64,000 bases of DNA, from IMG/VR virus record IMGVR_UViG_3300029822_000005. One strand, given 5' to 3'. This stretch comes from a virus. The notes beneath the pieces are model-generated. The model was not told the origin of the DNA, ran no database searches, and worked only from the letters and a program-made list of their open reading frames with translations. This document shows, one piece after another, positions 2,157 to 53,840 of this stretch; within the stretch, counting starts at the first letter, position 1; the number at the start of each line of letters is the position of its first letter. The position numbers were made by a program, and so were the translations under genes.

Positions 2157-2164
2157 GTGGATAA

Positions 2165-2356
2165 ATGATTACTAGAGATACTTTAAACAAACGAATTTGT
2201 GATGTGGAAAAGGAAGCAACAAATACTCAAACATATAAGGAATTTATAAGAGAAAGTGAAGAAGAGTTTGGATTGCAACATGAAACTGTAGAGTTGTATA
2301 CAAGCGTTGAATTGCAAGAGTATTTAGGTTTTTTGAATAAATTATGGGATAAGTGA
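2165..2356 (+). CDS. Hypothetical acidic protein
   Basis: ORF with AGGTGG SD. Confidence 0.6.
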   Translation: MITRDTLNKRICDVEKEATNTQTYKEFIRESEEEFGLQHETVELYTSVELQEYLGFLNKLWDK

Positions 2357-2404
2357 AAGAGGACAGCTATATTATAGGCAGATACACCAGCCCAGGAGAA
2401 TAAC

Positions 2405-2872
2405 ATGGCTTATTTATGTTTGAAATGCTACAAAGTTATAGAAGAAAGAGCAATAAAAAGGGCCAGAAAGATACCTTATGAGAATAAAATAGGACATTAT
2501 TATGTATGCCCTTATACTAAGTGCCAAGGGGAGGTAGTTTGGATAGATGAACTCATGGTACCTATTATAACTACCCTTAACCAGAAGGGGTATAAAACAA
2601 AACATTCATGCTCTGCTCATTCCTATCAAGAAAACCCTAACTGCTACATATTATTTGAAACATATTGTAAATTACAGCACCTACCCAAAGGATTTAATCA
2701 GGAAGGAAAAATGATAAGAAAAGTATTTAGAGAGCGGGGAACAAGACTATTTAAGGAAATAAGCAATACTGCTATTGAATTATTAGAATATGCGGGTAGA
2801 TTACCTGGGAAAGAAGGGGAAAATGAAACTGGTCAAAAAGATAAACAAAAAACTTATGAAACAAATAGCTAA
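2405..2872 (+). CDS. Cys/His-rich putative zinc-binding protein
   Basis: CLKC, CPYTKC and HSCSAH motifs. Confidence 0.55.
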   Translation: MAYLCLKCYKVIEERAIKRARKIPYENKIGHYYVCPYTKCQGEVVWIDELMVPIITTLNQKGYKTKHSCSAHSYQENPNCYILFETYCKLQHLPKGFNQEGKMIRKVFRERGTRLFKEISNTAIELLEYAGRLPGKEGENETGQKDKQKTYETNS

Positions 2873-3113
2873 TTTTATATTTAATTTTATAAATTTCATA
2901 ATAGAGTGTTTTATATCAGGTATGTGTATTTCGGTTATTATATCAGGTGGCGTATGTGCTATATTAGAAGATTCCTTTTCGCAAAGAATTAAGTGGTTTC
3001 TGTTGGCTGGTATAGCACTGTATATTTTACTGCAGATGGGAATGTCCATAACAACTAGAAGAAAAGGAACTTGTGGTTTGAAAGGTTATTTAAATAAGGA
3101 GGAAAGTAGATGA
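2823..3113 (+). CDS. Putative two-TM membrane protein
   Basis: GAAGGGG SD before ATG 2823; two hydrophobic segments. Confidence 0.5.
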   Translation: MKLVKKINKKLMKQIANFIFNFINFIIECFISGMCISVIISGGVCAILEDSFSQRIKWFLLAGIALYILLQMGMSITTRRKGTCGLKGYLNKEESR

Positions 3114-4036
3114 AATATAGAAACAAAGTTACAGGTGATGAAATAGAAGCTCTACACATTTATTCAGGTATATGCGGTAGAGATATATTCGAATTTGCCG
3201 GAGGATTAGTAGATACTTTAACGGATAATACTTTTGAAGGTGGATTTGCTACAATAAGTGGACCAGGTTTTGAGATTATAATAATTATGGGCGATTATCT
3301 TATGAAAATTGAAAATAAACTATACATATTGCCAGAGAAAGAATTTGAAGAATGTTTTGAAGCTATTAAAAAGGAAAGCAATGATGTGGAAAGCCAAATA
3401 AAATTTTATGTAAATAAAAATAATGGTAATATAGTTAGAGCTTTTAAAAACTTAAAAAAACAAAAGCATTATTATTCTGATCCTATTTTGGAATTAGGCA
3501 GAGGGCTAATAATGAGCTACAGCTCGTTAGACACAGTCACTAAAATACAATTTAAGAACGATACAGGTATAGGCAATATAAAACCTAATGATTACATAAT
3601 AAGAGAAGAAAACAATATATATGTACTACCTCAAGAAGTGTTTGAAACTTATTTTGAACCTGCTAAGGAAAAGAACATATTTAATCCGGTAGACAATGTA
3701 GTTGTATCTGGCGTAGAAATCAATAAAGAACGTACTGTAAAAGATTTAATACTAGATATGATTATAGAGGAAAAGTCAAATTTGGTACAAACTTTAATTT
3801 GGAACTATATTAATAGCAAAATTCAAAATGAAAATCAGAATATTGCAGAGTTTGGAGAATCAGAAACATCCAGATATTCAGAGTTGGTAGAAACAAGAAA
3901 ATTGATCTCCAATAATTTTTTAGATAGAGCAGAAACAGATTTATTTAAAGTCTTTTGTGCTATCGATATGAAAGGCATTAAACGAGAACTTAAACGTCTT
4001 TTAAGACAGCAAGAAGCAAAAGAAGGTGAAAAATAG
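3110..4036 (+). CDS. Phage protein with two tandem copies of a small domain
   Basis: GDYLMKIENKLYILPEKEFEECFE vs NDYIIREENNIYVLPQEVFETYFE. Confidence 0.6.
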   Translation: MKYRNKVTGDEIEALHIYSGICGRDIFEFAGGLVDTLTDNTFEGGFATISGPGFEIIIIMGDYLMKIENKLYILPEKEFEECFEAIKKESNDVESQIKFYVNKNNGNIVRAFKNLKKQKHYYSDPILELGRGLIMSYSSLDTVTKIQFKNDTGIGNIKPNDYIIREENNIYVLPQEVFETYFEPAKEKNIFNPVDNVVVSGVEINKERTVKDLILDMIIEEKSNLVQTLIWNYINSKIQNENQNIAEFGESETSRYSELVETRKLISNNFLDRAETDLFKVFCAIDMKGIKRELKRLLRQQEAKEGEK

Positions 4037-6348: not shown

Positions 6349-7476
6349 ATGGCAGAAAATAAAACCCCTGTTGAAATGATAGAAGAAATAAACAAAGCTT
6401 ATAAGTCATTAAAAGATGAACTAGAAAAGAAAAGCGCAGATCCAGCGGCTATTGAGAAAATTCAATCTAGATTAGATGAATTGGAACTTAAATCACAGAG
6501 AATAAATACTACACCTAAAGCTATAGAAGAAAAGGGAATGACTAAAGAGGAGATAGAATATAAATCTTCTTTCGATAGCTACGCTAGAAAAGGTGTTGTA
6601 GATCAGAATCTTGAAAAAAAGCAGATGGCTAGTGACAGCAATCCAGATGGAGGATATATGGTGCCAAGTGTTATGGCTACCAATATAGTTGAAAGGGTTC
6701 GCCAAATGTCCCCTATAAGACAAATAGCTAATGTAGTAACTATATCTAATGCTGGAGAATATAAAATACCAAGAGAAAATACAGATGACTTTGATTCTGG
6801 TTGGGTAGGAGAAAGACAAGAAAGACCTTTGACTGCTAATGGTACTTTAGAGATGGTTAAAATTCCATTAAATGAGCAGTATGCACAGCCAGCACTTACT
6901 AGAAAGTTAATGATAGACAGTAACTTTAACTGGGAGTCTTATATAAATAGAAAAATAGGTAACAAATTTGCCAGACAAGAAGCTACTGCATTTGTATTAG
7001 GAGATGGCGTTAATAAACCACTAGGATTTTTATTTCAGCCTGATACTAAACAAGGTATAGAAGTAGTAACCAAAACCCTTAACTTTGATGGATTGATGGA
7101 TTTACAAGCAGCATTACTTGAAGAATACTTACCTAATGCAACGTGGTTGCTAAACAGGCTTACTTTAAGAGATGTAAGAAAACTTAAAGATAGCCAGAAT
7201 AGGTATTTATGGGAACCATCTACACAAGTGGGGCATCCAAATACTATCTTAGGATATGAATATAACCTTGCAGCAGATATGCCTACACCTGGAACAAATG
7301 CTTTATCTGTAGCTTTTGGAGATTTTGCACAAGCTTATACTATAGTTGATGGAGCTGGTATGTACGCATTAAGAGATGAATTGACAAGAAAACCTAATAT
7401 ACTTTTCTATACTACTAGAGAAGTTGGCGGCGGTGTAGAAACGCCAGATGCTCTTAAAATTTTAAAACAACAATAG
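6349..7476 (+). CDS. Major capsid protein, HK97 fold
   Basis: Coiled-coil delta domain, DGGYMVP, AFVLGDGVNKPLG, YLWEPS, VAFGDF, REVGGGV motifs. Confidence 0.95.
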   Translation: MAENKTPVEMIEEINKAYKSLKDELEKKSADPAAIEKIQSRLDELELKSQRINTTPKAIEEKGMTKEEIEYKSSFDSYARKGVVDQNLEKKQMASDSNPDGGYMVPSVMATNIVERVRQMSPIRQIANVVTISNAGEYKIPRENTDDFDSGWVGERQERPLTANGTLEMVKIPLNEQYAQPALTRKLMIDSNFNWESYINRKIGNKFARQEATAFVLGDGVNKPLGFLFQPDTKQGIEVVTKTLNFDGLMDLQAALLEEYLPNATWLLNRLTLRDVRKLKDSQNRYLWEPSTQVGHPNTILGYEYNLAADMPTPGTNALSVAFGDFAQAYTIVDGAGMYALRDELTRKPNILFYTTREVGGGVETPDALKILKQQ

Positions 7477-9662: not shown

Positions 9663-10181
9663 ATGGTAGATATAAACGCTATTTGGAACACATTTATAAA
9701 TGGATTGAATACTCAATACCCTTCTTATACATATCTAAAGGCTAATTTAAAAGGACCATTACCTCCATACCCCTATGTAACTATTAATTGCCTTACTCCT
9801 TACAAAAAAGATATGGATATTGTAGGAGGCACCAAGATAAGACAAACGGTGAATAACAAAGTTCAAGTAATATCAACAGAACAGCCTAAAATGATTTTTA
9901 GTTTTATGGTATATTCGGACAATCTTTCTCAATGTTTACAAGTTTTAAGAGATACCCTTGATTGGATAAAAACTACAAATCAGCAATATCTTAGAAAACG
10001 TGGTATCGTAGTTGTAGACGTAGGAAACGTAGGAGATAGGTCGGTTTTCTTAGAAGTAGATTACCAATATTGTTGGGGGAGCGACATAACCATAAGAGTA
10101 TTTGATAGTGTCACTACCGAAATTAACCCTATCAGTAGCGTTGAAATTACAGGGAATGACAATGAATTAATAGATATATAA
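9663..10181 (+). CDS. Tail terminator / neck protein
   Basis: PPYPYVTI motif; position before sheath. Confidence 0.6.
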   Translation: MVDINAIWNTFINGLNTQYPSYTYLKANLKGPLPPYPYVTINCLTPYKKDMDIVGGTKIRQTVNNKVQVISTEQPKMIFSFMVYSDNLSQCLQVLRDTLDWIKTTNQQYLRKRGIVVVDVGNVGDRSVFLEVDYQYCWGSDITIRVFDSVTTEINPISSVEITGNDNELIDI

Positions 10182-10478
10182 GGAACTTCAAATAGTTGCT
10201 AAATAGTTATACAAAATTGGACATTTAATATTTTGTATAATAATTATTTGATGTTTTCAAGCCTAAGTGAATGTAGTGGATTGAAAAATCTATAGTATGA
10301 TGAACTACGATTGTAGAAAAGTTAAAGATGTACCCTTAAATGTATTCTTCAGTTTAAGGCTCTACAAATATTGAGGATGACCGACTACTATTGTCCTGTA
10401 GTCAAACACCAAAAATATATATACTTTCTACTGTCATTGGCAAGAAGAAAATTTCCACAAAAGTGAGGTTTATCAGAA
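10182..10478 (+). ncRNA. omegaRNA (HEARO-like) scaffold of IscB
   Basis: Long 5' hairpin (10184-10197 pairs with 10242-10255; 10207-10217 with 10230-10240), then CAAGCCTAAG, ACTACG, GTAGAAAAGT/ACTTTCTAC pairing, TTCTTC/GAAGAA pseudoknot-type pairing and CATTGGC directly 5' of iscB; boundaries approximate. Confidence 0.75.
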
Positions 10479-11720
10479 ATGATAAAAAATAATAATTATA
10501 GTTTTGTTATTGATAATAAAGGTAATAAACTAAGTCCATGTAAAACAAATAAAGCATGGTATTTAATTAGAAAAAGTAGAGCAATACAAGTTAATAAATA
10601 TCCTATGATTATTCAATTAAAAAAAGAAATAAAGGATAAAAAAGATGAATCAGAATTTGTTAGTGGAATAGATGATGGATCTGCCCATGTAGGTATTAGT
10701 GTAATTCAAAAATGTAAAACTAAAAATAAAGTAATATTTAAAGGAACGATTGAACAACGTCAAGATGTTAAGCACTTAATGGATGTTCGTAGAGGTTATA
10801 GACGTTATAAGAGATACCATAAAAGATATAGAAAAGCTAGATTCAATAATCGTTCAAATAGTAAAAGAAAAAATAGGATTGCTCCAAGTATTAAACAAAA
10901 GAAAGATGCTACTTTAAGAGTTATTAATAGATTAAATAAATATATCAATATAACAGAATATCATTTGGAAGATGTTGCAATAGATATAAGAGCATTAACA
11001 GAAGGTAAAAAACTATATAGATGGCAGTATCAAAAATCTAACAGGCTAGATGAAAACATAAGAAAAGCAGTTATATTAAGAGATGATTGTAAATGTCAAG
11101 AATGTGGTAAATCTAATTATATTTTAGAAGTACATCATATCGTTCCTAAAAGATTACATGGAAGTAATAATATTGGTAATCTTATAACTTTATGTAGTAA
11201 ATGTCATCAAAAGACAGAAGGAAAAGAAGAATTATTTATTAAACATTATCAGGATATGATACAAGGAAAAAATATAAGATTTGATTATGCTCAACATGTA
11301 ATGCAAGGAAAAATATATCTTAGAAACGAATTAAGTAAATTAGATAAATTAATATTAACAACAGGTGGAGATACAGCGAATAAAAGAATTCAATGGGATA
11401 TAGAAAAGACACATAGTAATGATTCATTAGTTATAAATGATTTAAAAATTAATAGTAAAGATTGTAATATAAAAGATTGGATAATAAAACCAATGAGAAG
11501 AAAAAATAAAGGTAATATAGATGAATGTTTAGGATTTAAACATAGAGATTTGGTAAAATGCACAAAGAAAAATGGTGAAAGTTATATAGGATATATTACA
11601 GCATTATATCCTCAAAAGAAACAATGTAATATAACAACGTTAGAAGGAAAAATATTAAAAAGATATGGAATTAAATCTTGTAAATTATTATGGAGATTTA
11701 ATAAAATATATTGGTTTTAA
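10479..11720 (+). CDS. iscB: IscB RNA-guided endonuclease (PLMP-like, RRXRR, split RuvC, HNH)
   Basis: [18 protein letters not shown] (RuvC-I), Arg-rich bridge helix, HLEDV (RuvC-II), CQECG...EVHHI...N...LCSKCH (HNH), HSND (RuvC-III). Confidence 0.92.
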
Positions 11721-11791
11721 AAACTTAGAAAATAAAAATAAATAGGAAGGAGAGGTTAAGTTTGTCTAAGTTTTCTTAACCAGGTATTTAA

Positions 11792-12820
11792 ATGGATATA
11801 ACAGTAAATATTTCTGATGCTGTTCCAGTTGTGAGCCAATCTGGTTTTGGATTACCTTTGATATTTTGCACAACAGCAGCACATGATTATGAGGAATATG
11901 ATATAAGCGAAGATATACTTTCTGTAGCAGCAGATTTTGCAAGTAATACAGAAACGTATAAAATAGCCAATACAATAGCAGGACAAAGCCCAAGACCACA
12001 GAAATTAGCTATATTTGGAGTGGATTTATCTGCAAGCGTGCAGAAAGCAACAGATTTAGTGTCCGCATTAAACACATTAATTGTTACTAATGGTGATTGG
12101 TACAGGTTACTACTAGAGGATAAAACTGAACCACTTATAGCAGCAGCCAGTGAATGGGCAGAAACTAACGGAAAATCTTTCTATACAACATTTGGAAATA
12201 TTACTTTTACTACAGATTTTTCAATTAGAGCAAAAACTAATCTGTTCTATAAGGAAAATACTGATAGAGTAGATGCGGCAGCAGTAGGATATGCAACAAC
12301 CAGAATACCTGGAACGTACATATTTAAGTTTAGAAATCTAAATGGTATTACTGCAGACGCACTTACACCGTCAGAACTTTTGACAATAAGAAGTAAAAAG
12401 ATGAACGCATATGTTAGCAAGTTTGGAAATGTAGATTTAGCTACTAATCAACTCGACGAAGGATTTGCAGCCAACGGGAAGCCAATTGACTATGAAGAAA
12501 GTAAAGATTGGGTTAAATATAGAATTACTCAAGAAATTGCTAGACTTCTGATGAATACACCCAAACTGGGGGCAGACGATGCGGGAATTGCAAGTATTGT
12601 AACTGCGGTAACAACCGCCTTAGATGATGCAACAGCAAATACTATTATACGTAGAGGCCCAAATAAAAAAGGGTTATATACTATTTCCTACCTAACAGCA
12701 GATAACTTGCCAGAAGCAGATATAGTTGCAGGAAGAATCTCAGGAATTTCTTTTAAATATGCGTATTTGTTTGGAATAAAAGAAGTTGCTGTAAGTGGTT
12801 CAGTTGTAGTCAATCTATAG
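11792..12820 (+). CDS. Contractile tail sheath protein (DUF3383-like)
   Basis: SQSGFGLPLI, ETYKIA..IAGQSPRPQK, KFRNLNGIT, DYEESKDWVK motifs. Confidence 0.85.
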   Translation: MDITVNISDAVPVVSQSGFGLPLIFCTTAAHDYEEYDISEDILSVAADFASNTETYKIANTIAGQSPRPQKLAIFGVDLSASVQKATDLVSALNTLIVTNGDWYRLLLEDKTEPLIAAASEWAETNGKSFYTTFGNITFTTDFSIRAKTNLFYKENTDRVDAAAVGYATTRIPGTYIFKFRNLNGITADALTPSELLTIRSKKMNAYVSKFGNVDLATNQLDEGFAANGKPIDYEESKDWVKYRITQEIARLLMNTPKLGADDAGIASIVTAVTTALDDATANTIIRRGPNKKGLYTISYLTADNLPEADIVAGRISGISFKYAYLFGIKEVAVSGSVVVNL

Positions 12821-33914: not shown

Positions 33915-35492
33915 TTAAAGTTTTAATTTTAAACCTATACGTTTCCCGTCCCATACAACCTCTTTGACAACACTTCTTATTAATTCCTTTTTACGATCTA
34001 TATCTAAGTTTTTTATATCTGCACTTAAATATTTTATGTTTCCAAATGCAAAATAAAAATCCTTTTCCCTTTGTTTATACAAAAACGTTTTATCTTCAAA
34101 TTCGGAAATTTGTTTTTCTAGAGATTGTATTTCTAAATCCAAACTTTCTATTTTTTTAATTATATATTTACTTGCCACAGAATTTTCAGCATCTATTAAT
34201 TTTATGGTCAATTTTTCTATATCGTCTTTATTCTGCTTTATTTTGATTTTCATTTTTTTTATATTTATTTCATTATCCGGTACGTTTGAATTTTTAGAAT
34301 ATTCTTTGTATATTTTGTTAAGCTTGTCCTCGTTTTGCGAAATATCTATAATTCTATTCAGTACAAACTCATCTGTCTTTCTACCATTTAAATTTTTTAT
34401 AGAACAATCTATTCCGCGTGTATTTACTTTTTTGTAACATCTATAATAAAAAATATCTTTCTTTCCTTCTTTGTATTCGTATGATATTTTCATATTACTA
34501 CCACAATTAGCACATTTTAATAAACCTCCTAACAACGCAGTGCCAGAGGTTCCTTGTCTCGGATATTTACTATAGTTAGCTTTAAGTAACCTTTGGACTT
34601 TAACCCATGCGGAACCTTGAATTATTCCTTCATGTTTCCCAATAGAAATTATCCAATTGCTAGTGGGTTTTAATATGCTTGTTTTGTTGCTAAAAGTTCT
34701 ATCGTATGATGTTACTCCTTTTGACATGTTATTCTTAAACTCTTCTTCACTATTACATATAATCATTTTTGTTTCTACAGCATAATTATAAAAATCCAGA
34801 TCTGCAATACAATAGACTGGATTTTTCAGGGTAAAAGAAAGAACATTATATGCAAAATTATTTCCGTTTTTTCTTCTTACGTTATGTTCAAGGCACCATT
34901 TTGAAGTAGCATATATAGAACCTTTTTCTATATATGTGTTATATATTTTTTTGATTATGTTCGCATCCGCGGGTTCTAATTTCAAATATGTATTTTTAGC
35001 ACTTCCTACTCTTGTATATCCAAGTGGTACTTTTCCTCCTAACCACTTACCATTTTTCGCAAGTTCAATCATATTATCTCTAATACGTTCAGCGATAGTT
35101 TCTCTTTCCAATTGAGCAAAAACAGAGGCTATATATACCATAGCCTTTCCCATAGGTGTTGAAGTGTCAAATTGTTCTTTAATGCTTATAAAAGCTACAT
35201 TATATTGTTCTAATAATTCCAGTGTGGTGGAAAAGTCAGCAACATTTCTGCTTATCCTATCTAATCTATAGCACATTAAAATATTAAATTTTTTATTTTT
35301 TATATCTTTAATTAATTTTTGAAAGTTAGGTCTGTTTGTATTTCCTCCCGAGAACCCTTCATCTTCGTATAAAAATGTGTTTGAATCTTTATAATTTTTT
35401 GATATGTATTCTTTACACATTTGTATTTGATTTTCTATAGATTCAGAACCTTCAATAAATTTTGATTTTCTACTATATATCGCTACATTCAT
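33915..35492 (-). CDS. Large serine recombinase (integrase)
   Basis: VAIYSRKS, YEDEGFSG.NTNRP, YRLDRISR, FAQLERETIAERI, recombinase domain, Zn ribbon CANC...C, coiled coil. Confidence 0.95.
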   Translation of the reverse strand: MNVAIYSRKSKFIEGSESIENQIQMCKEYISKNYKDSNTFLYEDEGFSGGNTNRPNFQKLIKDIKNKKFNILMCYRLDRISRNVADFSTTLELLEQYNVAFISIKEQFDTSTPMGKAMVYIASVFAQLERETIAERIRDNMIELAKNGKWLGGKVPLGYTRVGSAKNTYLKLEPADANIIKKIYNTYIEKGSIYATSKWCLEHNVRRKNGNNFAYNVLSFTLKNPVYCIADLDFYNYAVETKMIICNSEEEFKNNMSKGVTSYDRTFSNKTSILKPTSNWIISIGKHEGIIQGSAWVKVQRLLKANYSKYPRQGTSGTALLGGLLKCANCGSNMKISYEYKEGKKDIFYYRCYKKVNTRGIDCSIKNLNGRKTDEFVLNRIIDISQNEDKLNKIYKEYSKNSNVPDNEINIKKMKIKIKQNKDDIEKLTIKLIDAENSVASKYIIKKIESLDLEIQSLEKQISEFEDKTFLYKQREKDFYFAFGNIKYLSADIKNLDIDRKKELIRSVVKEVVWDGKRIGLKLKL

Positions 35493-35923
35493 TTTTCTAC
35501 ATCCTTATTATTTTCTTTTACATCTTCCCCAAATATAGTAGATGCTATTTTTTCCATTTTTATTTCGAGTTCTTTCATTTCTTTCATTTTTTCATCCATT
35601 TCTGTATAGGTCATTCCATTCGGGAATTTATAAGTATGTAAAATCATTTTCTCAAAAGCAGATACATCACCCGTATTTATCATATCTTTGTTCATTGTTT
35701 TTTTCTTTAAATATTCCTCTTGACCAAGGAGGTATTCAACAGTTGTGTCTAATGCTAAAGCAATGTTCATTGCGTTTTCTACACTCATGGTACTTCTGCT
35801 GTTTTCTACGGCATTTATTAGACTAGAACTAACTCCTGCTAATTCACCTAATCCTCTTGTACTTAATTTTTTGTTCTTCCTTTCTTGCGCTAATCTTTCA
35901 GCAAATATCTTATCATAGTTCAT
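35489..35923 (-). CDS. CI-like XRE repressor
   Basis: RLAQERKNKKLSTRGLGELAGVSSSLINAVEN; divergent from cro-like gene. Confidence 0.85.
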   Translation of the reverse strand: MNYDKIFAERLAQERKNKKLSTRGLGELAGVSSSLINAVENSRSTMSVENAMNIALALDTTVEYLLGQEEYLKKKTMNKDMINTGDVSAFEKMILHTYKFPNGMTYTEMDEKMKEMKELEIKMEKIASTIFGEDVKENNKDVEK

Positions 35924-52425: not shown

Positions 52426-52821
52426 ATGGAATATAAACACTGTGAAAATTGTGGCTCTACTAAACAGTTGGAAAAGCACCACCGAATTTTCAAAAGTAGG
52501 TGTAAGCCATTAGCACACTGTAAATATAATATGGTTTACTTATGTTCAGATTGCCATAGGAATAAACCTTATGCAGTTCATAACAAACATGGGCATGAGC
52601 TAGATATGAAATTGAAGTTACAGTTTCAAAATTGGTTAGAGGAAACATTTTATCAGGAAAGATACACATTAGATGAAATAAGAAAGAAATTAGATATATC
52701 TCAAAATGCAGCAAGAAGCTTGTCTAAACTTATAGACATAGACAAAGGGGCTTATACCAGAGGAAACATTATAAGAGCAGCAATGGGCGGAAAAATAATT
52801 GAATTGGAGGAGATTAAATGA
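52426..52821 (+). CDS. HNH endonuclease family protein
   Basis: CENCG...LEKHH...N..YLCSDCH. Confidence 0.8.
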   Translation: MEYKHCENCGSTKQLEKHHRIFKSRCKPLAHCKYNMVYLCSDCHRNKPYAVHNKHGHELDMKLKLQFQNWLEETFYQERYTLDEIRKKLDISQNAARSLSKLIDIDKGAYTRGNIIRAAMGGKIIELEEIK

Positions 52822-53423: not shown

Positions 53424-53840
53424 ATGATAGAGTTTAAGGTTCCTGGATTACCAATGGGAAAACAACGCCCGATTGTAACTAGAAAAGGAGCCTTTACTCC
53501 TAAGAAAACTGTAAATTATGAGAACTATATTAAAGAACTATATATAATAAATAAACTGCCAAAGTTAGAAGGGTATTTAAGTATGTCTGTAATGGCATAC
53601 TACCCCATACCAAAGAGTACAAGCAAGAAGAAAAGAGAACAGATGCTAAAAGGCATATTATTACCAGATAAGAAGCCAGATATTGATAATGTCTTAAAGT
53701 GTATATGTGATGCATTAAATAAAATAGCTTATGATGATGATAAACAAATAATAAATATGTCTATATCAAAGTATTATAGTGAAAATCCATGTACCATAAT
53801 AAGGCTAGATAAAGTTTGCGGAGAAGACTTAAGCTATTAG
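53424..53840 (+). CDS. rusA: RusA-like Holliday junction resolvase
   Basis: PMGKQRP, KPDIDNVLKCICDALNKIAYDDDKQI. Confidence 0.9.
   Translation: MIEFKVPGLPMGKQRPIVTRKGAFTPKKTVNYENYIKELYIINKLPKLEGYLSMSVMAYYPIPKSTSKKKREQMLKGILLPDKKPDIDNVLKCICDALNKIAYDDDKQIINMSISKYYSENPCTIIRLDKVCGEDLSY

Follow-up and report, generated by a model that had tools for sequence, protein, structure and literature searches.

An IscB-omegaRNA element in the late operon of a temperate phage, with a predicted guide against element-free sister phages

Background

IscB nucleases work with an omegaRNA whose scaffold comes from the transposon end and whose guide is the outside DNA adjacent to it on the 5' side, and production of the guide needs transcription that enters from outside, upstream (Meers et al. 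2023, bioRxiv 10.1101/2023.03.14.532601). The 'transposon non-restorative homing' of such OMEGA elements between co-infecting phages has been set out as a theoretical case only (2026 review PMC13565253). The DNA analysed here, IMG/VR virus record IMGVR_UViG_3300029822_000005 (64,000 nucleotides, hereafter the window), carries an iscB gene and an omegaRNA scaffold between the tail terminator and tail sheath genes of a temperate phage, and raises the question of how an IscB element came to lie there and what it does for itself or for its carrier. An earlier note, made from the sequence alone, had proposed that the guide would be the 3' end of the tail terminator gene and that the element could home into, or destroy, co-infecting related phages that lack the insertion.

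Here we locate both ends of the element by comparison with element-free sister phages, derive a predicted guide, target-adjacent motif (TAM) and mode of self-protection, and place the element among its relatives. A comparison of the possible roles leans slightly towards homing into, or killing of, co-infecting phages whose site is empty, by an RNA-guided route that would require no transposase.

Results

Insertion boundaries and the empty allele

In five sister contigs (L001 from IMG/VR and L062-L065, from at least four samples) a tail terminator gene 95% identical to that of the window is followed by the sheath gene 12 nt later. Comparison with these contigs therefore bounds the insertion in the window at 10185-11782 (+ strand), a length of 1598 bp with an ambiguity of one nucleotide (an A; 10184-11781 is equally possible). 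All five empty contigs have ...GATATATAAGGAGGTATTTAAATGG and agree with the window in each of the 45 nt that precede the junction; at the sheath start the empty allele has the sequence TAAGGAGGTATTTAAATG. Empty-site relatives, on whose existence the earlier note had staked its proposal, were thus found, and the right end, which it had put at 11760, lies at 11782.

The insertion is a clean single block with neither a target-site duplication nor terminal inverted repeats, as is typical of the IS200/IS605 type, and has a GC content of 24.9%, against about 33% in the flanks. The gene on its left, at 9663-10181 (+, 172 aa), is the tail terminator gene named by the earlier note (PF23961 5.8e-21; phrog_1232 tail terminator 1e-26), and the insertion point falls 3-4 nt past the stop codon of this gene, inside the Shine-Dalgarno sequence of the sheath gene (TAAGG^AGG). 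On the right, the remnant of that Shine-Dalgarno sequence (GG, 11783-11784) and the tail sheath gene itself (ATG at 11792; phrog_205 3.9e-54) together occupy 11783-12820 (+).

Among the 22 contigs of the window type that were read with the exact terminator allele, all places shown are occupied and the copies are identical; of the sister type five contigs were read, and all four places shown are empty. The sister phages are about 91% identical to the window phage over the tail module and mosaic elsewhere. The flanks of the insertion are 96-99% identical to the empty sister out to about 150 bp and 82-95% identical beyond, in a profile that is patchy throughout.

The IscB nuclease

The iscB gene (10479-11720, +) encodes 413 aa with matches to PF14239 (RRXRR, 5.3e-49, residues 9-186) and PF01844 (HNH, 1.6e-12, residues 206-246), that is, with the N-terminal RRXRR/PLMP region and the RuvC fold interrupted by an HNH domain that mark the family. 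The match to HfmIscB (PDB 9k2z) reaches 572 bits across residues 7-413. In an alignment to the OgeuIscB and HfmIscB structures every RuvC and HNH catalytic position is filled (D65, E164, H219/H220, N234, H243, H312 and D315), and the motifs GIDDG (D65), LEDV (E164) and HSND (H312/D315) align with GIDPG, LE, HH and HylD of OgeuIscB, so that the nuclease is catalytically complete, as the earlier note had judged. The sequence of iscB is identical in four other contigs with the exact element. The encoded protein is an IscB (OMEGA family) of the HfmIscB-2 lineage, and TAM-dependent cleavage of a guide-matching target is predicted for it. HfmIscB-2 itself comes from the infant-gut metagenome contig Ga0169696_100022 and has a structure solved by cryo-electron microscopy, PDB 9k2z (Kannan et al. 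2025, PMC13180657).

The omegaRNA scaffold

By HEARO match, fold and alignment the scaffold occupies 10181-10478 (+) and consists of a leader, a first stem with an inner hairpin (10182-10257), the HEARO core (10253-10455) and a 3' hairpin just 5' of the iscB start. The covariance-model search that the earlier note had advised gave one HEARO (RF02033) match in the 64-kb window, at 10253-10455 (+), directly upstream of iscB and on the same strand, which confirms the observation of an IscB-omegaRNA at this locus. The match covers the full length of the model with a score of 35.6 bits, below the Rfam gathering score of 83, and E-values of 6.7e-5 (4-kb search) and 0.0011 (whole window). The Rfam model misses the first stem and hairpin, a lineage-specific form that was recovered by folding, in which leader GAAC plus TCAAATAGTT (10183-10198) pairs with AATTATTTGA plus GTTT (10241-10255) around the inner hairpin at 10205-10241. 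Eleven relatives have the same first-stem architecture. Ten aligned lineage members have 46 consensus pairs in common, compensatory changes are seen at 29 of these, and the long-range AGCC/GGC pairing typical of HEARO is among them. The window scaffold is also collinear with the scaffold given for HfmIscB-2.

The leader AGGAAC (10181-10186, +) is, by the empty-site comparison, composed of AGGA, which is shared with the empty site as the left part of the split Shine-Dalgarno sequence and putative TAM, and of element sequence. The scaffold starts 1-2 nt past the terminator stop codon (10179-10181), in agreement with the first hairpin that had been placed at about 10182, right after the stop.

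The gene upstream points the same way as the element and ends 1-2 nt before the first stem; a terminator-like site is not predicted. A promoter scan found 15 promoter-like sites where 21 were expected from shuffles, a number not above chance. An internal promoter for a guide-less omegaRNA was considered at 10217-10241 and rejected: its hexamers (TTGGAC...TATAAT-like) have a spacing of 13 nt and are not conserved in relatives. From the co-orientation, the lack of a terminator-like site or of an above-chance promoter, and the rule of Meers et al., we infer that the guide would be co-transcribed with the late operon.

Guide, TAM and self-protection

The empty-site comparison puts the boundary 0-4 nt before the first stem, and any 5' extension of the RNA would therefore be flank DNA. 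The predicted guide and target is the 16-nt AATTAATAGATATATA at 10165-10180 (+), immediately 5' of the leader and first stem, in a register that is uncertain by about 2 nt and at a length taken from other IscBs. It consists of four terminator codons and the stop codon (the final 15 nt of the gene) plus one base, is unpaired in the minimum free energy fold, and is identical in all five empty-site contigs; a search of the window for second phage targets gave no other match with fewer than two mismatches. The guide of the earlier note, GAATTAATAGATATATAA (10164-10181), lies within 1 nt of this register, and that part of its proposal stands, whereas it lacked the splitting of the Shine-Dalgarno sequence, the likely role of this sequence as TAM, and the fact that the lineage had already been characterised (HfmIscB-2).

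The register was derived with the help of HfmIscB-2, for which Kannan et al. 2025 (PMC13180657; Suppl. Table 1) give a TAM of RNRRRD from an in vitro cleavage screen and a scaffold that begins AGGACTAAT, so that the 3' end of the guide would lie just before the AGGA leader. In the empty allele a perfect target match is followed by AGGAGG, which fits RNRRRD, and in the occupied allele by AGGAAC, which fails it at position 6. The same arrangement recurs in the lineage, where none of 14 copies has a leader hexamer that fits RNRRRD and a fitting purine hexamer stands downstream of every element. Other registers were tried and rejected. If the guide ended at 10179 the carrier's own site would fit the TAM (AAGGAA); an end at 10182 gives GAGGTA, which fails RNRRRD; and ends at 10183 and at 10184 (the physical junction) give AGGTAT and GGTATT, neither of which fits. 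The TAM and self-protection can both be satisfied only by a register that ends at 10180 or 10181, and the sheath Shine-Dalgarno sequence is the likely TAM of the empty allele.

Relatives, placement and mobility of the lineage

Relatives with 60-77% protein identity are found on IMG/VR phage contigs, from the gut and elsewhere, in Herelleviridae phages of Staphylococcus, whose copies bear no annotation beyond 'HNH endonuclease', and in the genomes of Firmicutes. Nearly every copy examined has the order co-oriented gene, stop codon, (A)AGG(A) leader, scaffold, iscB, Shine-Dalgarno sequence and next gene, the last of which starts 3-60 nt past the iscB stop. A short target motif of the kind known from IS200/IS605 elements is present in all relatives, with (A)AGG(A) on the left and a Shine-Dalgarno sequence on the right.

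A second, independent empty-site comparison comes from phages of 130-180 kb, in which an empty AACACAAGGAGGATG stands against an occupied allele made up of AACACAAGG, the insertion (GCTAACC...TTTTA) and AAGGAGG; both comparisons allow insertion at AAGG^AGG. In this group 7 alleles are occupied and 9 empty, with at least five gains or losses on a tree of the 750-bp flank, occupancy is no more clustered than shuffled labels, and one of the occupied alleles shares its entire 750-bp flank, without a difference, with three of the empty ones. A presence/absence polymorphism of the homing type, at the same site among related phages, is thus seen both between the window and sister types and within the second group. 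Of the nine empty alleles, three are a perfect match to the predicted guide; a C-to-T change lies 4 nt ahead of the predicted TAM in five, and one carries an indel. The altered alleles may have escaped cleavage. These phages are L022-L037 (IMG/VR), and the junction lies upstream of a gene that starts ATGGATATTTTAAATGG.

A metagenome-assembled genome (MAG) of the Halanaerobiales, G001 (L039, L040, L048, L055 / L070-L074), holds at least four copies of the element, 94-95% identical, at intergenic sites with different flanks, each bounded by GGAG...AAGGAGG and 8-10 nt before a different start codon. The presence of so many near-identical copies in different surroundings of one genome shows that the lineage is truly mobile. 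The same genome also carries four unlinked Y1_Tnp genes, and their loci have no end-sequence similarity to the IscB element.

The closest relative of the window element (L047, Clostridiaceae MAG, 2160-3751; 77% amino acid identity) is homologous to it from exactly 10181 (AGGAACTTCAAATAGTTG) to 11731; its iscB is broken into fragments, and the TAG stop codon of its upstream gene overlaps the leader. In L004 the right end lies only 2-3 nt past the iscB stop codon. Two further contigs, L005 and L006 (about 2750-2997), have an intact iscB and a scaffold without some 73 nt of its middle, and look like a decaying copy. In Staphylococcus phage vB_SsapH-Golestan101-M (L038, LC557520.1; 2275-3783) ORF173, annotated 'HNH endonuclease', encodes an IscB and is accompanied by a full omegaRNA; this element stands after the ORF172 stop codon (CAGTAAGGA, then CTTA) and before a PhoH-like gene, and a gene annotated 'transposase' lies 1.4 kb downstream of it.

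The right end and the class of the element

An imperfect palindrome at 11712-11782 (+; inverted repeat I2, arms 11712-11732 and 11762-11782, 21 nt, 81% complementary) spans the iscB stop codon, and its 3' foot is the insertion boundary. Folded as single-stranded DNA it has a z of -2.0 (10 of 200 shuffles fold as well), and the left end, with the first stem and inner hairpin, has a z of -2.7. A hairpin across the stop codon is also predicted in about six relatives, and right ends vary greatly among relatives. The loop at the right end contains a second Shine-Dalgarno-like run, GGAAGGAGAGG (11745-11755). The possibility that a hairpin brings the upstream GGAGAGG near the sheath ATG was rejected, the RNA fold of 11736-11800 being no better than shuffles (z = 0.07) and pairing the purine run instead. 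The final 62 nt of the insertion (11721-11782) are unique to the window copy, homology with the closest relative stopping at 11731; a 7-bp hairpin, GGTTAAG/CTTAACC, lies at 11754-81, and the sheath gene's own Shine-Dalgarno sequence is reduced to AGG in the carrier. A search of viral contigs with the 28-nt right-end hairpin, as a possible old carried-over flank, gave no matches. It is possible that the right end arose by two events, a canonical insertion ending before AAGGAG at 11747 and then a 31-nt insertion into the regenerated Shine-Dalgarno sequence, but we rate this below a single insertion because the foot of the right-end palindrome coincides with the empty-site boundary.

No tnpA was found: the 1598-bp insertion contains no other plausible open reading frame (ORF), and 30 further ORFs of the window gave no match to Y1_Tnp (PF01797), as the earlier note had also seen. 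The Y1 (HUH) transposase TnpA that belongs to IS200/IS605 (ISC) elements is thus absent from the insertion and from the ORFs tested, and the element is at most non-autonomous, as are most elements with iscB (Meers et al. 2023). Recombination at a GG core in the manner of IS607 was rejected, as no single GG crossover would fit the window junctions and the architecture of the 525-aa serine recombinase (33915-35492) is that of a phage integrase. In class the element is best read as ISC / IS200-IS605, in a non-autonomous form that consists of iscB and its omegaRNA.

Discussion

From the observed anatomy and boundaries, intact nuclease, covarying scaffold, empty target and mobility of the lineage we infer the production of a guide, a TAM, cleavage and repair-mediated copying. 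Transcription of the late operon would read through the tail terminator gene into the scaffold, and the mature omegaRNA would bear about 16 nt of the 3' end of this gene as its guide. In an element-free sister phage the guide target would be followed by AGGAGG, the sheath Shine-Dalgarno sequence serving as TAM, and IscB would cut the sister genome at the terminator/sheath junction. The carrier would be spared because the insertion splits the TAM, leaving AGGAAC. In a mixed infection the break would then be repaired from the carrier genome, with copying of the element (homing), or the competitor would be removed. We regard this transposase-independent, RNA-guided homing or killing as the best explanation of the locus, with the probability a little on its side. 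Several points weigh against it. There is no clear co-conversion tract around the site, the occupied and empty phages come from different samples, and the occupied copies are all identical, which gives no sign of ongoing spread in the window phage. The insertion removes most of the sheath Shine-Dalgarno sequence, which is expected to be costly. The TAM is borrowed from a homologue (the 572-bit match) and the guide register depends on that TAM, and self-protection hangs on a single TAM position (the C at position 6).

The element might instead be an ordinary non-autonomous passenger of the IS200/IS605 type, brought by a Y1 transposase of the host in trans and without a role between phages. The absence of a target duplication, the hairpins at both ends with their feet at or near the boundaries, and the AAGG^AGG insertion point that two independent empty-site comparisons allow all fit such mobilisation, as do the four Y1_Tnp genes that the four-copy Halanaerobiales genome holds elsewhere and the report that only about 1.5% of iscB genes are near tnpA (Meers et al. 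2023, bioRxiv 10.1101/2023.03.14.532601). No Y1 link was found, however, either among the 30 window ORFs tested or in the multi-copy genome, the Y1 loci of which share no end sequences with the IscB element, and the great variation of the right ends, down to 2-3 nt past the stop codon in L004, is unexpected for an end that a transposase recognises. Without excision, moreover, a role in retention has nothing to act on in the phage, and we think this explanation unlikely.

Exclusion without copying, in which the element is a domesticated weapon that destroys related superinfecting or co-infecting phages, seems quite improbable. It would resemble the killing of competitors by some free-standing homing endonucleases. 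The sister phage presents a perfectly matching target in an essential late operon, and none of the 22 contigs read with the window terminator allele lacks the element; as the sisters are mosaic outside the tail module, repair by gene conversion may also be inefficient. Yet late transcription, on which the guide depends, comes too late to exclude a phage early and does not take place in lysogens, the flanks within about 150 bp are similar enough (96-99%) for recombinational repair, and in the second phage group the element comes and goes in a scattered way that resembles a mobile element rather than a fixed weapon. It is very improbable, lastly, that the element is a silent relic, in which ORF and scaffold are intact and merely carried, with no guide-bearing RNA made or with a guide and TAM that cannot be cleaved. 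Its relatives do decay (the broken iscB of L047, the shortened scaffold of L005 and L006), the HEARO score is well under the Rfam threshold and the TAM register is uncertain; against this stand a full-length ORF with every catalytic residue, a complete scaffold collinear with one that is active in vitro, and a strongly deviant GC content, which suggests recent arrival and not long decay.

The element resembles several known systems. With HfmIscB-2 it shares the lineage and the architecture of the omegaRNA, in which the leader is of the AGGA type, the first stem is long and encloses a hairpin, and the HEARO core follows; the HfmIscB-2 TAM fits the empty site. It is a different ortholog, with other sequences in its first stem and inner hairpin and with AGGAAC in place of AGGACT as its leader. 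Kannan et al. 2025 present the protein as a tool for editing, and in the accessible part of their work phage context, insertion site and empty alleles are not addressed. GstIscB of Geobacillus stearothermophilus (Meers et al. 2023) is likewise a non-autonomous IS605-type element with the scaffold at its end and a co-oriented upstream gene; a guide outside the element, dependence on read-through and the element-free site as target are further likenesses, which for the window element are predicted. The TAM of GstIscB, however, is AT-rich (TTCAT when read in the sense of the transposase) and is located entirely outside the element, past its far end, whereas the likely TAM here is a purine-rich Shine-Dalgarno sequence that contains the insertion point, and the Gst element resides in a bacterial chromosome with TnpA available, whereas the window element is in a phage with none detected in the ORFs tested.

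Elements of the IS607 family with TnpB have a TAM of AGGAG or GAGGG and insert at a GG dinucleotide (review PMC13565253). The likeness lies in a Shine-Dalgarno-like TAM, the likely one for the window element, and in insertion at or next to GG, and relatives of the window element have short, GG-containing direct repeats at both junctions; the differences are the TnpB nuclease, the guide 3' of the scaffold and the serine-recombinase transposase of IS607, and no iscB was found in association with that recombinase (Meers et al. 2023, bioRxiv 10.1101/2023.03.14.532601). The free-standing homing endonuclease genes of phages, of the T4 Seg/Mob type (PMC13565253), also lie between conserved co-oriented phage genes, are polymorphic and are expected to cut the element-free allele. 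In such protein-guided endonucleases self is told from non-self by nearby substitutions, whereas the window element would recognise its target by RNA guide and TAM, and the distinction would be set by the insertion itself.

IscB-omegaRNA elements, a logic of the homing type, and the measured TAM and solved structure of this lineage are already known. The locus adds an unusually clean natural test case. The element is intact and lies in a phage late operon, both of its ends are fixed exactly, and its sister phages offer an unoccupied target that the predicted guide matches perfectly; the locus also yields a specific, falsifiable prediction of guide, TAM and self-protection. If spread by RNA-guided homing between co-infecting phages took place here, it would have a natural example. 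Full-text literature searches, of incomplete coverage, found no paper on phage-borne IscB homing or on a Shine-Dalgarno TAM for IscB.

More broadly, and more tentatively, the whole lineage may use the Shine-Dalgarno sequence as both TAM and insertion site, settling between a stop codon and the next ribosome-binding site and acting in phages as RNA-guided, 'intronless' homing endonucleases that, without a transposase, pass between co-infecting relatives or kill them; we give this somewhat less than an even chance. If the Shine-Dalgarno sequence is the TAM, placement between it and a stop codon would at once supply read-through transcription of the guide, leave both neighbouring ORFs intact and destroy the TAM by insertion, so that the carrier escapes cutting. 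Such family-wide placement may explain how elements without a transposase obtain guide transcription and spare host genes.

The phage and its neighbouring genes

The window phage is temperate, with integration and repressor genes, and has a low-GC Firmicute host. Its late operon on the + strand runs from the major head protein (6349-7476) through a head-tail adaptor, Neck1 and the tail terminator gene (9663-10181) to the tail sheath gene (11792-12820). On the - strand, at 33915-35923, a large serine recombinase with Resolvase, Recombinase and zinc-ribbon domains adjoins a CI-like helix-turn-helix repressor, and it is from this lysogeny module that the phage is taken to be temperate. By exact-protein look-ups this phage is also present in the fermentation metagenome PRJNA260163, where its contigs reach 68.8 kb. 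There is no near cultured phage (capsid identity at most 38%), and scans of a metagenome collection with a 24-mer of the left flank and with the start of the sheath gene gave no matches to further phage relatives. A 120-aa protein encoded at 4410-4772 matches the Acb2/Tad1 hairpin domain (PF24729, 2.2e-9). A second, small stand-alone HNH endonuclease ORF (PF01844, 8.7e-5) is present at 52426-52821, in the replication/recombination region near RusA (53424-53840).

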